Shown: positions 15,047 to 57,390 of the stretch, one piece after another | Numbering within the stretch: the first letter of the stretch is position 1 | Layout of the letters: each line of letters opens with the position of its first letter | DNA from: Acidimicrobiia bacterium | Lineage (GTDB): Bacteria > Actinomycetota > Acidimicrobiia > Spongiisociales > ZC4RG35 | Reading direction: 5' to 3' | DNA: 64,000 nt | Assembly (NCBI GenBank): GCA_035762545.1 | Contig: DASTOM010000024.1 | Location: 1,007-65,006, forward strand | Notes under the pieces: generated by a model | The model's database searches: none | What the model was told of the DNA's origin: nothing | The model's input: the letters and a program-made list of their open reading frames with translations, nothing else | Translations under genes and position numbers: made by a program

Positions 15047-15081
15047 GGGCTGTAGACCTCGCTGAGCGACGTCTACAGCCC
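15047..15081. promoter_or_regulatory. perfect 11-bp inverted repeat (GGGCTGTAGAC-N13-GTCTACAGCCC) upstream of the arg operon
   Basis: Read directly. It lies between divergent genes, so it is not a terminator. About 25 nt upstream of a TTGACC(15108)-18-GACACT(15132) promoter-like pair. Confidence 0.45.
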
Positions 15082-32386: not shown

Positions 32387-35300
32387 CTATGCCACCCGGT
32401 CGGGAGCGAGAACCGCCCGCATTTCCTTGCGGATCGCCTGGGACGAGCCGCCCGGTTCCATCGTCACCCCGTAAAGCACGTCGGCGGCCTCCATGGTCTG
32501 CTGCTGGTGGGTGATGATGATCAGCTGTGCTTGCTGCCGGAACTCGTCGACGATCCTGAGGAAGCGACGGAGGTTGGCGTCGTCGAGGGCCGCCTCGACC
32601 TCGTCCAGCACATAGAAAGGGCTGGGACGGGCGTCGAAGATGGCGAAGAGGAAGGCCAACGCAGCGAGGCTGCGCTCACCACCCGACAGCAGAGTCATGT
32701 GAGACACCTTCTTGCCCAGGGGTTGGGCGTCGATGTTGACACCAGAATGCGGGTCGTCAGGGTCCTCGAGTCTGATCCGTCCTCGACCGCCGGGGAAGAG
32801 GACCCCGAAATAGCGCTCGTAGGCCTCGGCGACTTCCTCGAAGGCTTCGTCGAATCGACTCTGGATCTCGTTCTCGAGGGCGCTGATCACCTTGCGCAGC
32901 TCGGCCCGGGACGACTCGACGTCGGCCATCTGTTCCGAGAGAAACGTGTGTCTCTCCTCCAGCTCGCGGTACTCCTGGGCCGCCAGCGGGTTGATCGGGC
33001 CAAGCCGTCTCAACTGCGCCAGACCATTCTCCATCAACTCGGCGAGGTCGGCGTCGGGGGCGACGTCCGGTCTCGGTGCTCCGATCGCGGCATCGATCTC
33101 CGAGTCGGCGTCACGACGGATCGATTCGACCACGGCCTCACGCCTCATCCGCAACTCGGTCAATCTCACGTCGAGCCCGGAAACCCTCGACCTGGCTTCG
33201 GCGATCGACTCGACCCGGGCTTCGTGGTCTGAACGAATCGCACCGAGTTCGCCCCGGATCTCGTCGTTGGCGGTGCGGAGGTCGGCCTGACGCTCCCGAA
33301 GCTCGAGGATCCGACGCTCCAGGATGCCGACCGCCCTCCGGGCGAAGCCACTCACGGACTCGAGCCGGGCGGGGTCGATGCCATCTCTGCCTCCCCCATC
33401 TAGCCGCGAGAGCTCGTCGCGGATTCGGTTCACACGATCTTCGAGAAGGGTCTTGCGTTCCACCACGGCGCGATGGGTGGTGGCGGCCTCCTGCCAGGTC
33501 GACCGGGCGGCCTCTCGCTCGGCGGCCAGGGAGACCCGACGGGCCTCCATCTCCTCCCACATCGCCATCCGCTCCGCTTCCTCGCCTTCGAGGGCTTCGA
33601 GCCGGCGTCGCAGGGAGGTGGCTTGGTCGGAGCCGGAGGAAATGGCTTCCTCGAGGGCCTCCCTTCGGTCGGCGAGACGGGCCTTTTCGTCTTCGAGACC
33701 CCGGACCGACGCCTGGATCCGGTTCATTGCCTCGGTGTGCCCGGCGATGGCCCCCTCGGACCGTTCCAGAATTTCCAACGCCTGCCGCTCGGCGTCGCGA
33801 TTTCTCTCGAAGTCTCGTTTGGCGGCGGTGTGGGTCGACTCGGTGCGGGCGAGTTCGGTGGCGGCCCGCTCCACCTCGACCTCGGCCGACTCGAGCATCG
33901 CCGAACCGGTTCCGTCGGGATCGGCGATCCGCACCCCGGTGATCGCGATCACGTCACCTTCGGGTGTGACCGCCCGCAGTGCGGGATAGCGGGTGATCAC
34001 GGACCAGCCGGCGCTCCAACCCTCGACGAGGACGACATCGCCGAGAAGGCGACTCGCCAAACCACGGTGGTGACCCGGGCCGAGACGGTCCACCAGCGCT
34101 TCGAGACCGAGCGCGGCTGCAGCAGCGGGGGCCGGCATCGCCACCTCACTCGTGGATGACACCACCGACACCGAACCACCCCCGGCGCCCTTGACGATCT
34201 CCACTGCGTCCTGGACAGACCCGACATGATCGAACGCGATAGCGTCCGACCAGGCACCCAGAGCGGCGTCGACCGCCTTCTCCAGGCCGGCGGGGATATC
34301 GAGTTGGGAGGTCAGTGAGCCCAATGCCCCGGCCGCAGACTCGACCGCCTTGCGGGCCTCGCTGTCGTAGCGGCCCGCCAGAGCGGCGGCGATGGCTTCG
34401 AGACGGGCAGTGGCTGCAGCGTGCCCGATCCGGGCGGCCTCCAGCCTCTCCTCGGCCTCGGTCCACCTCTGCTGCTGCGATGACCGGGCCGCAGTCGCTT
34501 GATCGAAGGTCTTCTGCAGGTCTGCCAGCGATGTGTCCATCGTCTGGATCTCTTCGTTGATCCGGTCGATCTCGACCTTCTCGTCGACAATCTGAGACTC
34601 GAGGACCTCACTGCGGTGCCGTACCCGGTCGAGCTCCCTCTGGTCGCGGTCCAGCGCCGACTCGAGAGCACTCAGCTCGCCCCGGACCGCGGCAAGGGCA
34701 CCCTCGGGCGACAGCGAGTTCTGGGTGGCGATGACGCGCTCTTCGCCCTCGAGCCTGCGAAAGGCGATCTCGGCCCGAGCAGCCTCGGCTTCGGTCTCTC
34801 GAAGTTCGGTCCCGATCATCTCGAGACTCTCTGCGATGGCCAAGGTCTCCTCTTCGAGGTCGGCCCGCCGCTCGACGGCGGCCTCGCGACGACCGGTGGC
34901 GGCCCGGCTCCGCTCGACCGCGACCGAGGCGACCCTCCTCAAACGTTCGTTGGTGGTTTCCAGCAGGGCCGCAGCCGACGTGTCCCGATCGAGGTCGGCA
35001 CCGACGATGGCTGCGCGATCGGTGAGTCCGGAGAGCAGTTCGGAGAGCTCGCTCACCCTTCGCTGGTCGACCTCCAGCCCTTCGCTGAGGATCGACTTCT
35101 CAGAGGTGGCGATGGTCAGGTCCCGGTCGAGCCTTGCGATCTCCTGACCGCCCAGGTAGAGCCGGAGTGCGGTCACCTCGTCCTTCAGCCCCTGGTACCG
35201 CTCGGCTGCGTTGGCCTGACGCTTGAGGGGGCGCATCTGGCGGGTGATCTCACCGAGGAGATCGGTGAGACGGACCATGTCCTCGTCGGTCCGTTCCAAA

Positions 35301-35839
35301 CGGCGCTCGGAACGCTCCTTGCGCCGGCGGTGCTTGAGAATTCCGGCGGCTTCCTCGATGACGGCGCGGTGCTCTTCGGGCGACGCGTTGAGGACCCTGC
35401 CGATCTCTCCCTGACCGATGATGACGTGCTGATGACGGCCGACACCGGAGTCGGACAGGAGGTCCTGGATGTCGAGGAGCCGGCAGCCGACCCCGTTCAA
35501 CTCGTAGTCGCTGGAGCCGTCGCGGTAGAGACGCCGGGTGATCGCGACCTCGTCGAGGTCGAGGTCGATCATCCGCTCGGTGTTGTCGATGACGAGGGTC
35601 GCCTCGGCCTTGCCCAGGGAGGGGCGGGTGGCGGTCCCGGCGAAGATGACGTCATCCATCTTCTGGGTTCGGAGCGTCTTCGTCGACTGGGTGCCGAGGA
35701 CCCAGGAGAGGGCGTCGACGAGGTTCGACTTGCCCGACCCGTTGGGCCCGACCACGACGGTCACACCCTGGCGGAACTCGAGCCGGGTCCGATCGGCGAA
35801 GGACTTGAACCCGGCCAGTTTCAGTGACTTCAGATACAA
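32387..35839 (-). CDS. smc: chromosome segregation protein SMC
   Basis: 1150 aa. N-terminal GPNGSGKSN, long coiled coils, hinge, C-terminal LSGGERSLAALAFLFA...YVLDEVEAALD. TTG start. Confidence 0.96.
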   Translation of the reverse strand: MYLKSLKLAGFKSFADRTRLEFRQGVTVVVGPNGSGKSNLVDALSWVLGTQSTKTLRTQKMDDVIFAGTATRPSLGKAEATLVIDNTERMIDLDLDEVAITRRLYRDGSSDYELNGVGCRLLDIQDLLSDSGVGRHQHVIIGQGEIGRVLNASPEEHRAVIEEAAGILKHRRRKERSERRLERTDEDMVRLTDLLGEITRQMRPLKRQANAAERYQGLKDEVTALRLYLGGQEIARLDRDLTIATSEKSILSEGLEVDQRRVSELSELLSGLTDRAAIVGADLDRDTSAAALLETTNERLRRVASVAVERSRAATGRREAAVERRADLEEETLAIAESLEMIGTELRETEAEAARAEIAFRRLEGEERVIATQNSLSPEGALAAVRGELSALESALDRDQRELDRVRHRSEVLESQIVDEKVEIDRINEEIQTMDTSLADLQKTFDQATAARSSQQQRWTEAEERLEAARIGHAAATARLEAIAAALAGRYDSEARKAVESAAGALGSLTSQLDIPAGLEKAVDAALGAWSDAIAFDHVGSVQDAVEIVKGAGGGSVSVVSSTSEVAMPAPAAAAALGLEALVDRLGPGHHRGLASRLLGDVVLVEGWSAGWSVITRYPALRAVTPEGDVIAITGVRIADPDGTGSAMLESAEVEVERAATELARTESTHTAAKRDFERNRDAERQALEILERSEGAIAGHTEAMNRIQASVRGLEDEKARLADRREALEEAISSGSDQATSLRRRLEALEGEEAERMAMWEEMEARRVSLAAEREAARSTWQEAATTHRAVVERKTLLEDRVNRIRDELSRLDGGGRDGIDPARLESVSGFARRAVGILERRILELRERQADLRTANDEIRGELGAIRSDHEARVESIAEARSRVSGLDVRLTELRMRREAVVESIRRDADSEIDAAIGAPRPDVAPDADLAELMENGLAQLRRLGPINPLAAQEYRELEERHTFLSEQMADVESSRAELRKVISALENEIQSRFDEAFEEVAEAYERYFGVLFPGGRGRIRLEDPDDPHSGVNIDAQPLGKKVSHMTLLSGGERSLAALAFLFAIFDARPSPFYVLDEVEAALDDANLRRFLRIVDEFRQQAQLIIITHQQQTMEAADVLYGVTMEPGGSSQAIRKEMRAVLAPDRVA

Positions 35840-35946
35840 AGGCGTTTCCTGGGCTTACTACCTGGCAAATGACACACTTGTGATTGCCCGGTCAGGCTAA
35901 CTAGATCGGAGACGTTCCCGAACGTTTTAGACGTCGTATCTGCCTC

Positions 35947-36075
35947 GACCTCACGTCGAGCCTGCATACCGTCTCGCAGGGCAGGTCATGGTGCAGGTTC
36001 GACGAAGAGATGATCGTGACCTCACGTCGAGCCTGCATACCGTCTCCGACAACGGGACACCTTGCAGGTTCGGCG
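35947..36075 (+). repeat. tandem pair (71-nt period) of a 12-bp-stem / 25-nt-loop hairpin element
   Basis: A 29-nt perfect direct repeat GACCTCACGTCGAGCCTGCATACCGTCTC occurs at 35947 and 36018. Each copy folds GTCGAGCCTGCA (35955-35966; 36026-36037) onto TGCAGGTTCGAC/GGC (35992-36003; 36063-36074). G-U wobbles form only if read on the plus strand. Confidence 0.7.
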
Positions 36076-36116
36076 CGAGACGCGTGAGCCGATGCTTGCT
36101 CGATAGGCGGCCCCCC

Positions 36117-36404
36117 TCATACTGATGACGGCCCAGGCTGGATGAAGAAGTCGGTGAGGGTGACGTCCGGGGCGACGACGTCGGACTGGACGCCGGTGAC
36201 CCGAGCCGCGATCGGGCCTGCCCAGGCCCAGTCGACGAGGCTGTCGATCCGATCGGGCTCTCCCTGGGCGAACATCTCAACACTCCCGTCGGCGCGGTTG
36301 CGGACCCACCCCACCAGGTCGAGAGAACGGGCGGTGCGTCGACAGCCCTGGCGGTAGCCGACACCCTGGACCTGCCCGGTCACGAGGATGCGAACCGCCT
36401 TCAC
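36117..36404 (-). CDS. acyP: acylphosphatase
   Basis: 95 aa. VTGQVQGVGYRQ, GWVRNRADGSVE. Confidence 0.9.
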   Translation of the reverse strand: MKAVRILVTGQVQGVGYRQGCRRTARSLDLVGWVRNRADGSVEMFAQGEPDRIDSLVDWAWAGPIAARVTGVQSDVVAPDVTLTDFFIQPGPSSV

Positions 36405-56637: not shown

Positions 56638-57239
56638 CAGCTGCCACCTCCGAGAAGCTTGCCCTTCTGGGCTTCGAACTCCTCGTCGCTGAGCTTGCCC
56701 TGGTCGTGCAGCCGGGAGAGACGCTCGAGCTGGGAGACGGAGTCTGAGCCGCCGCCACCTCCGTGGTCGTTCGAATGAATCCTCACTTCCCTGACCTTGT
56801 AGATGAGGGACTGGACGGCCTCGGGCTTGGGGATGTCCTTGTACCGGGTCTGACCGTGTGTCCCGGCCGACTCGATCATCAGGTCGCCAGTGCCGAAGAT
56901 CCTCTCGAAGATCGTCTGGTTGAAGGCGACGTTCTGGATCACCTCGAGCGGGATCTCGGTCCCCTGTTTGGCGATCAACCCGGCCCTGTAGATGATGCGC
57001 TCGTTGGTGATGACGTGATTGGTCGTCACCCACCGGGTGATGCCTCTCACGATCAGGACGATCACCAACCCGGCGACCGCCCACAGCAGCCATGTCGGCC
57101 AACCGAGGACCAGGACCAGAACAGCGAGCGCGATCCCGATGAGGATGATGAGACTCTCCCGCAAGATCCCGGACCAGTGCGGCCTGAATTCGGTCTCGAT
57201 GACTTCGCCCTCGCTGAGGAGACGTTTCGGGTAACCCAT
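56637..57239 (-). CDS. membrane PH-domain (bPH_2/YdbS-like) protein with C-terminal SHOCT domain
   Basis: ATG 57239: MGYPKRLLSEGEVIETEFRPHWSGI..., two TM segments, VTTNHVITNERIIYRAG...DLMIESAG, Gly run, then SVSQLERLSRLHDQGKLSDEEFEAQKGKLL. ATGA overlap with the ligase start. Confidence 0.75.
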   Translation of the reverse strand: MGYPKRLLSEGEVIETEFRPHWSGILRESLIILIGIALAVLVLVLGWPTWLLWAVAGLVIVLIVRGITRWVTTNHVITNERIIYRAGLIAKQGTEIPLEVIQNVAFNQTIFERIFGTGDLMIESAGTHGQTRYKDIPKPEAVQSLIYKVREVRIHSNDHGGGGGSDSVSQLERLSRLHDQGKLSDEEFEAQKGKLLGGGS

Positions 57240-57290
57240 GCACCGAGAATACCGGCGCACGGGTTTCCTGGTCGCCGTGTCGGATGTCAT

Positions 57291-57339
57291 GTCGAACCTG
57301 CATGCCGGACCTCGCTCCGGGACACGGTGCAGGCCCGAC
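57291..57339 (-). repeat. third copy of the 12-bp-stem / 25-nt-loop hairpin element
   Basis: On the minus strand, GUCGGGCCUGCA (57339-57328) pairs with UGCAGGUUCGAC (57302-57291). Two G-U pairs form on this strand only. 52 nt upstream of the PH-SHOCT start codon. Confidence 0.65.
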
Positions 57340-57390
57340 AGAAGGGCGTCCGACGGGAACCGGACGAGACGCCCGGCGAAGGACCAGCCC

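Follow-up and report, generated by a model that had tools for sequence, protein, structure and literature searches.

The window, the whole 64,000-nt stretch of DNA analysed here (C24:1007-65006), belongs to the genome G000, a 2.98-Mb MAG of an Acidimicrobiia bacterium with 64% G+C in 44 contigs. It holds three copies of a hairpin element, two of them (U1 and U2) in the spacer between the acylphosphatase gene acyP and smc and the third (U3) in front of a bPH_2-SHOCT gene (Table 1). U1 and U2 form a dimer that lies ~35 nt from the acyP stop codon and thus at the 3' end of acyP, between this stop and a leader block of smc that is kept in nearly all genomes of the genus in a spacer comparison of 19 genomes. 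The gene names given in a preliminary description of this DNA agreed with Pfam (SMC_N, Acylphosphatase and bPH_2 with SHOCT), and the distance of 52 nt that it gave between U3 and the PH-SHOCT start was recovered when counted from the end of U3 to the start of the gene.

Table 1. Hairpin elements and neighbouring features of the window, with the candidate partner gene in the last row.
Feature	Position	Strand	Covariance model R1 score	Basis or remark
smc	32387..35839	-		SMC_N, E = 2.6e-37; ORF list; downstream of the dimer on the minus strand
Conserved smc leader (GTTAGCCTGA..CAATCACAAG..TGTCATTTGCCAGGTAG)	35840..35905	-		acyP-smc spacer comparison, 19 genomes
Element copy U1	35944..36014	+ (strand with the G.T pair; element near-palindromic)	64.4 bits (+), 53 bits (-)	Core TCGAGCCTGCA-25-TGCAGGTTCGA at 35956-36002
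Element copy U2	36015..36085	+	62.3 bits (+)	Core 36027-36073; abuts U1 head to tail
acyP (acylphosphatase)	36117..36404	-		Pfam PF00708, E = 2e-23; ORF list
bPH_2-SHOCT gene	56640..57239	-		PF03703 + PF09851; 52 nt downstream of U3
Element copy U3, singleton	57280..57350	-	49.8 bits (-), 34.6 bits (+)	Core 57292-57338; left arm TCGGGCCTGCA
AbiEi_4-DUF559 gene, single-copy	G000 C44:66139-67155	-		Another contig than the window; framed by the window repeat

The sites themselves were confirmed by a pattern search. GTCGRGCCTGCA-N(20-30)-TGCAGGTTCG matched three times in the 64-kb window, at 35955-36001 (+), 36026-36072 (+) and 57293-57339 (-), exactly where the three copies had been described, and in none of 100 dinucleotide-preserving shuffles of the window. 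A covariance model search with filters off returned no further copy in the window. U1 and U2 start 71 nt apart and have their first stretch in common, bearing out the tandem duplication noted before; the spacing of their arms is 36/35/36, a weaker outer extension of the palindrome brings the U1 unit to ~71 nt, and the right arm of U2 ends in TTCGG in place of TTCGA. The window contained no Rfam match at the gathering score, and a permissive threshold gave a chance snoRNA match alone (E = 1.2). Between 35700 and 36300 we found neither a consensus terminator nor a promoter, the number of terminator-like sites being zero, and the flanks of the element are G+C-rich and free of a U-tract. The absence of a U-tract, together with the 38 genomic copies described below, supports the earlier view that these are not ordinary terminators. 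The hairpins should not be annotated as riboswitches, small RNAs or terminators of smc or acyP.

If only the three window copies had existed, they might have been a recent local duplication. Counted by nhmmer over G000, the repeat occurs in 38 copies at 26 loci, all of them intergenic, and the REP-like element, one of several identities proposed at the outset, proved to be the right class. Gene positions were taken from our own crude codon-usage gene caller (3000 genes, 91% coding), on which the distances to gene ends rest. By this measure a stop codon lies within 52 nt at 22 of the 26 loci, with a median of ~11 nt and a typical distance of 5-13 nt. Convergent gene pairs flank six to eight loci and divergent pairs essentially none, and some copies occupy the whole spacer between co-directional genes, leaving 7 nt to the stop on one side and 7 nt to the next start on the other. 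No insertion footprint, be it a target-site duplication or another kind, was seen. Identity with integron attC sites was also considered and rejected, as there is no GTTRRRY core and no cassette array.

Alignment of the genomic copies defines the repeat unit as an imperfect palindrome of 61-72 nt (~71 nt), whose right half mirrors the left. From the outside inwards, it consists of a weak and degenerate extension (CTCTCMCR / YGKGAGAG), an almost invariant 11-bp arm (TCGARCCTGCA), a variable internal loop of 3-4 nt, an inner stem of 6-7 bp (GTCYCG/CGRGAC) and a variable apical loop of 5 nt. The 25 nt between the arms, first described as a loop, are correct as a spacing but are not a loop, since they contain this second stem of 6-7 bp with its 5-nt apical loop. 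The right arm, claimed to be invariant, varies across the family, where about a third of the copies carry the perfect-pair variant TGCAGGCTCGA. Folding energies range from -25 to -43 kcal/mol on either strand. In the sister species G018, the inner module is found in both orientations relative to the outer arms. An apparently better conservation of the inner 3' arm than of the inner 5' arm (9 vs 5 loci) was not significant.

Head-to-tail dimers are present at 12 loci with a period of 71-72 nt, and their arm steps read L-36-R-36-L-36-R in nine cases and 36/35/36 in three. The arm order was always L-36-R or L-36-R-36-L-36-R; R-L alone was never found, and orphan arms were at background level only. 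Aligning unit 1 with unit 2 showed that the dimer linker is made of two outer stem extensions, so that the dimers are abutting whole units, hence their period of 71-72 nt. For this reason, and because other genera have periods of 66-90 nt, we dropped the idea that the equal 36-nt spacing of the arms marks a phased protein array. Dimer partners are always of equal polarity and have loop sequences in common that differ from locus to locus, which fits local duplication or homogenisation.

The degree of pairing was assessed in an alignment of 55 sequences, in which the outer helix is almost invariant. This helix is 96.7% paired; over the whole alignment, 87.3% of the cells were base-paired vs 86.8% in shuffles, and the covariation score was equalled by 47 of 500 shuffles. 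As covariation does not rise above that of shuffles, no selection on pairing as such was detected.

It had further been proposed that G-U wobbles preserve the pairing on one strand and so give each copy a defined sense strand. We found this asymmetry to be confined to a single pair, 14-52. Copies were oriented so that this pair reads G.T, which makes A.C there impossible by construction; counted in this way, the 34 gap-free copies of G000 had G.T in 21, G-C in 11 and A-T in 2, and the 17 copies of G018 had G.T in 13, G-C in 4 and A-T in none. At the remaining stem pairs on the same strand G.U was about as frequent as A.C (29 vs 33 in G000, 10 vs 12 in G018), so that a genome-wide preference for G-U over A-C, without which the element would have no strand specificity, is lacking everywhere except at this pair.

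Several observations on the orientation of the copies point the same way. First, the arm states of 37 metagenome copies (15 G-C, 19 mixed and 3 A-T) were as expected for independent arms, while in G000 and G018 the two-state arm position was heterozygous somewhat above chance. Second, the G.T strand, which folds 2-4 kcal/mol better than its complement, is sense to co-directional neighbour genes at 3-4 loci and antisense to them at 8-9. Third, the polarity beside one orthologous gene is opposite in G000 and G018. Lastly, two copies only 1 kb apart have opposite polarity, which argues against a replication-strand rule. The "wobble" is one two-state R/Y position of the arm and not the mark of a functional strand.

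The family is narrowly distributed. Among 41 relatives searched, the exact arms were found in G000, in G018 and once in G008. The covariance model R1 had matches, to weaker copies, in 14 of the 22 genomes of the genus and, beyond it, in two further genera of its family, represented by G041, where many copies lie at contig ends, and G140, which has three-unit arrays; there were essentially none elsewhere in the order. The repeat was present on 23 metagenome contigs and in no copy on viral contigs. One match in a Conexibacter MAG (L015) was discarded as an unrelated perfect palindrome with a tRNA-like GGTTCGATCC.

Comparison with the sister species gives an impression of age and turnover. Four of nine mapped loci of G018 lie at orthologous positions in G000, with flanking proteins 57-84% identical; at these sites the arms align in a surrounding spacer that is unalignable, and the number of units differs (1 vs 2). 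Other sites are species-specific. Only G000 has the window repeat family filling its acyP-smc spacer. In G018 this spacer is empty, in G015 a remnant is left, and two other hairpin repeat families occupy it in G015/G017 and G008/G001/G006. Shared orthologous sites and kept arms, combined with differing sites and unit numbers, indicate an old family with arms under constraint, in which copies are gained and lost and their number changes.

Y1 transposases of the RAYT/IS200 type had also been put forward as possible partners of these hairpins. The corresponding domain (PF01797) is absent from G000 and from the genus as a whole (0 of 22 genomes), with 6 of 14 control genomes positive, and this option is not supported. 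TnpB (PF07282) is likewise absent from all 22 genomes. IS110 (PF01548) was detected in 10 of the 22 and is absent from G000 and G018, the two element-richest genomes.

A different candidate partner is suggested by its position. On another contig of G000, a single-copy gene for an AbiEi_4-DUF559 protein is framed by the window repeat: a repeat dimer lies at its 3' end, with the stop codon of the gene inside the first unit, and a single copy precedes its start by 37 nt. The G018 orthologue has the same layout. In 8 genomes (G000, G010, G018, G016, G004, G013, G020 and G019) the orthologue had R1 matches at both flanks, and in G021 at one flank, these orthologues being 48-57% identical. In a further test of framing, the low flank of each homologue was aligned with the reverse complement of its high flank, and the maximum of 30 shuffles served as cut-off. 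Matching palindromes of 45-60 nt stood above this maximum at both gene ends for 22-23 of the 27 homologue loci belonging to the genus and for all 6 of those from outside it, and the same layout was seen in the independent contigs L071, L131, L129 and L127.

The framing palindrome differs between paralogue clades. G000 has four paralogues, and the dispersed, intergenic repeat family that flanks them at both ends is a different one for each; three of the paralogues lack the window repeat and have framing repeats of their own. The four palindrome families have ~38, 18, 9 and 40-49 copies, compared to 0-2 for reversed-motif controls, and a TGCA core is common to most of the palindrome families. 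Each genome has one homologue copy per clade. A 358-aa Phosphodiest gene adjoins the orthologue in G000, in G018 and in two unrelated metagenomic contigs, and this constant neighbour marks the orthologue as a resident, vertically inherited gene at a fixed site.

The encoded protein, of ~309 aa, combines a winged helix with a nuclease domain of the Vsr/EDxHD-type PD-(D/E)xK kind. Pfam assigned it AbiEi_4 (PF13338, 51.5 bits, cut-off 25) and DUF559 (PF04480, 25.1 bits, cut-off 20.6), and a profile search of the PDB returned 3hrl, a DUF559 protein, and 3r3p. Among other residues, D242, E253, D255 and H260 are invariant in 30 homologues, so that the E-x-D...H motif is kept. Vsr, DUF559 and 3r3p have been grouped together among PD-(D/E)xK nucleases (Steczkiewicz 2012, PMC3424549). 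The AlphaFold (AF2) model (pLDDT 87.4) matched AbiEi (6y8q) over the first ~190 residues, best for the N-terminal half, and Rv2827c (1zel) over the whole length, and its C-terminus matched the catalytic domain of the homing endonuclease I-Bth0305I (3r3p) with a TM score of 0.74. Fusion proteins of DUF559 and AbiEi_4 occur abundantly in Actinobacteria, and to our knowledge no role has been assigned to them. A link of DUF559 to repeats was not found in the searchable literature, in which the nearest entry is a table row that lists DUF559 proteins as enriched among predicted inversion targets (PMC9881135).

If the gene and the dispersed repeats belong together, the variant that frames the gene and the variant that is dispersed in the same genome are predicted to co-vary. 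We tested this prediction by counting the dispersal of GCGTTGCTATAGCAAC, which frames the orthologue in G011, G012 and G005. Dispersed matches numbered 20, 36 and 33 in these three genomes, respectively, compared to none in G000, none in G016, one in G018 and three at one locus in G010. In each of G010, G021 and G140, the copies that frame the gene and the dispersed copies agree in their arm or interior variants. Judged by such sequence comparisons, a change of the framing repeat between genomes goes along with a change of the dispersed one.

There are exceptions. G041 has 26 element matches and no homologue at E <= 1e-30, G015 has ~5 repeat copies and only a 27%-identical paralogue, and the closest orthologue in G140 is broken by a frameshift and two stops. 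Clearly, persistence of the repeat does not require an intact gene. Contigs of 1-2 kb carry many of the homologues in public assemblies, and since the MAGs are fragmented and repeat-flanked genes assemble poorly, absences of the gene are weak evidence either way.

Taken together, we consider it likely that the hairpins are a REP-like family of extragenic palindromes, belonging to one family of Acidimicrobiia and equipped with a candidate cognate nuclease. Any read-through transcript, from either direction, would contain a hairpin of -25 to -43 kcal/mol, and at gene ends this hairpin would likely act as a barrier to 3' exonucleases or as an attenuator, as for the REPs of E. coli. The winged helix of the partner protein may recognise the family-specific arms, and its nuclease domain may nick or cut there. 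Nicking or cutting could then cause the repeats to be copied, moved or homogenised, which would give the protein the role that RAYTs have for REP/REPIN sequences, exercised by an unrelated enzyme. By analogy with those systems, we hold the chances to be about evenly balanced that the partner protein reads the family-specific arms and nicks or cuts at them, spreading or homogenising the repeats.

A more general reading, which we offer tentatively and to which we give somewhat less than an even chance, is that fusions of an AbiEi winged helix and an EDxHD nuclease form a second class of enzymes, outside the HUH type, by which REP-like palindromes cognate to them are created, moved or homogenised. 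In such a class, the winged helix would recognise the outer, variable portion of the arm and the nuclease would cut near the TGCA core. For the window family one may speculate that the recurrent G.T mismatch, in an extruded hairpin, is the type of substrate nicked by a Vsr-type nuclease, which would tie the "wobble" of the preliminary description to the enzyme.

The strongest alternative is that the hairpins are gene-end RNA structures only, namely terminators, attenuators or mRNA stabilisers that spread by recombination or local duplication with no dedicated enzyme, the framing copies being the operator and terminator of a repressor-like protein. The position of the copies a few nucleotides past stop codons, the many convergent and almost no divergent gene pairs, the stable folds on both strands and the arms kept at orthologous sites all suit such structures, but these would be expected neither to lack a U-tract nor to lie inside apparent operons, 7 nt from both a stop and the next start. 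AbiEi proteins are autorepressors that bind inverted repeats in their own promoter, so the framing copies could be operators. Consistent with this, AbiEi (6y8q) is the best structural match of the N-terminal half, and the repeat remains where the gene is missing or broken. However, an operator and a terminator leave unexplained why four paralogues are framed on two sides by their own dispersed families, why framing and dispersed variants change jointly and why an 11-bp arm is invariant across genera without covariation. We therefore regard gene-end structures alone as an unlikely account of the family.

Alternatively, the nuclease gene and its two hairpins could be a small mobile cassette, with the solo hairpins as gene-less, MITE-like derivatives or as insertion sites. 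Complete elements on both sides of the gene, a C-terminal domain that resembles a homing endonuclease and the many public homologues whose contigs measure 1-2 kb, as though flanking repeats had excised them, would be in keeping with a cassette. Its gene would hardly be expected to retain the same Phosphodiest neighbour in G000, G018 and two metagenomic contigs, which speaks for vertical descent, nor to occur in one copy per clade per genome, and no target duplication was seen; a cassette thus seems decidedly improbable. A strand-specific RNA or single-stranded DNA hairpin, acted on by a Y1 (RAYT/IS200) enzyme and maintaining its sense strand through G-U wobbles, could draw on the prevalence of G.T over the rare A-T at pair 14-52 (21 vs 2 of 34, 13 vs 0 of 17) and on the shared polarity of dimer partners, but is hardly tenable given the equal counts of G.U and A.C at the other stem positions, the independent arm states of the metagenome set, the opposite polarity at an orthologous site, the mixed orientation to genes even 1 kb apart, the absence of PF01797 from 22 genomes with positive controls and the lack of an Rfam match.

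Read as a REP-like family with a cognate nuclease, the system most resembles the REP/REPIN-RAYT arrangement, or "REPtron" (Nunvar 2010, PMC2817692; Bertels & Rainey 2011, PMC3116915). Both have short extragenic palindromes in tens of copies, mostly past gene ends and in lineage-specific variants, and a single-copy, vertically inherited gene that is framed by cognate repeats, with framing and dispersed repeats changing together. Unlike in that arrangement, the framed gene here encodes a winged helix with a PD-(D/E)xK nuclease and not an HUH Y1 transposase. The units are also longer (~71 nt) and fold as a two-tier hairpin, and they have no GTAG tag, the CGTC/GACG of some copies lying within the symmetric stem extension. 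All 12 dimers are head to tail and none is inverted, unlike the doublets of REPIN/BIME elements. Mobility of the repeat described here is putative.

A second comparison is offered by the CGTC REPs, which have stems of 8-9 bp, loops of 4-5 nt, an unpaired tag, a CCA tail and head-to-head dimers, have not been reported from Actinobacteria and were described as "without a dedicated transposase" (Di Nocera et al. 2013, PMC3733652). Like them, the present repeats are palindromes that lie downstream of genes and have no Y1 transposase associated with them, and many copies start or end with CGTCGA/TCGACG. In contrast to families 1-4 of the CGTC REPs, the CGTC here is part of the palindrome at either side, stems measure 11-18 bp with an additional inner stem, 25 nt separate the arms, there is no CCA tail and the dimers are head to tail. 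Mycobacterial repeats of the MIRU type are 40-100-bp intergenic tandem units that follow the orientation of the operon and do not form long palindromes. Like them, the present family consists of intergenic units found in an actinobacterium and differing in number between relatives at a given site; unlike them, it has palindromic units, the polarity of which bears no relation to the direction of genes.

The partner protein has relatives of its own. AbiEi (6y8q) and Rv2827c (1zel) are its best fold matches, and AbiEi binds inverted repeats at its own gene; unlike in the AbiE system, there is no AbiEii toxin partner here, the C-terminus is a nuclease domain and the repeat is dispersed throughout the genome. 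The C-terminal domain matches the group of I-Bth0305I (3r3p), Vsr and DUF559 by profile and by fold, with an invariant E-x-D...H. Unlike I-Bth0305I, the partner gene is not intron-encoded, and in contrast to I-Bth0305I and Vsr, the protein shows no sign of homing or of T/G mismatch repair.

The window hairpins are thus ordinary members of a REP-like family, and what makes them of interest is the candidate partner nuclease, which is not of the HUH type. As far as we know, the occurrence of REP-like repeats in the absence of a RAYT gene is a standing puzzle. If the proposed partnership is true, a mobilising activity could be named for such repeats, and a very large uncharacterised family of actinobacterial proteins would gain a function. 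G000 is a clean case, with four paralogues and four dispersed palindrome families in a one-to-one relation; another of these four families, GGGCTGTAGAC..GTCTACAGCCC, is itself present in the window at 15047-15081.

The nuclease gene framed by the main repeat family (that is, with matching palindromes adjoining both ends) extends into the repeat itself, with ~30 codons of its reading frame lying inside a repeat dimer and its stop codon falling within the first unit. Because nuclease homologues are usually 305–309 aa long, the C-terminal tail of this protein is probably an extra, repeat-encoded addition. The closest orthologue in another genus is disrupted by one frameshift and two in-frame TGA codons; its framing persists as 2 + 3 units of that genome's own repeat variant. 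Many public nuclease homologues lie on contigs of just 1–2 kb, hardly longer than the gene itself; breaks in assemblies at the flanking repeats would produce this pattern, and presence/absence tests in MAGs will be biased by it.

Paralogues of this gene in the window's own genome are framed by other palindromes. One is flanked by a second dispersed family with 18 copies, all intergenic (18/18). The window palindrome that had elsewhere been read as a possible arg operator is a member of this family. Around the fourth paralogue, the frame consists of mirror-image pairs of two boxes, AACCCSGGGTT and CCCATATATGGG, both short and self-complementary, which have 40–49 occurrences in the genome, nearly all of them intergenic; the former is similar to the GAACCCNGGGTTC arms reported for other Acidimicrobiia.

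Coordinates of the features described (G000, the window's own genome; G140, a relative from another genus of the same family; L, individual extracted loci)
Feature	Location	Remarks
3' end of framed nuclease gene	G000 C44:66139-66246	within repeat dimer
AbiEi_4-DUF559 paralogue	G000 C2:38419-39273	framed by second family
Palindrome GGGCTGTAGAC-13-GTCTACAGCCC	window 15047-15081 = G000 C24:16054-16086	second dispersed family
Fourth AbiEi_4-DUF559 paralogue	G000 C44:95898-96899	framed by mirror-image pairs of two boxes
Closest nuclease orthologue in another genus	G140:C18:180930-181836 (L137/L138)	
Conserved ~60-nt block	window 35840-35905; loci L029-L046	GTTAGCCTGA..CAATCACAAG..TGTCATTTGCCAGGTAG; directly upstream of smc start
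Arm-pattern match	L015:5101-5147	Conexibacter woesei MAG

In the acyP-smc spacer, only the block next to smc, a probable promoter or leader of that gene, is kept in nearly every genome of the genus; the remaining spacer is not conserved. In two relatives, G015 (L037) and G017 (L039), the spacer is filled by tandem arrays of 2.5–3 units of ~62 nt built from another, G-rich hairpin repeat (TGTGAGGGGGGCGACCCCCCTCCGGCCCTTCGGGCC...). In three others (G008, G001 and G006) the spacer contains a CCGTTCTGTGAG...CTCACAGAACGG palindrome, of the same family as the repeat framing a DUF559 paralogue in G015 (L094). Lastly, the arm pattern is matched exactly in L015, but by a perfect 52-nt palindrome that contains a tRNA T-arm-like GGTTCGATCC and appears unrelated to the main family.
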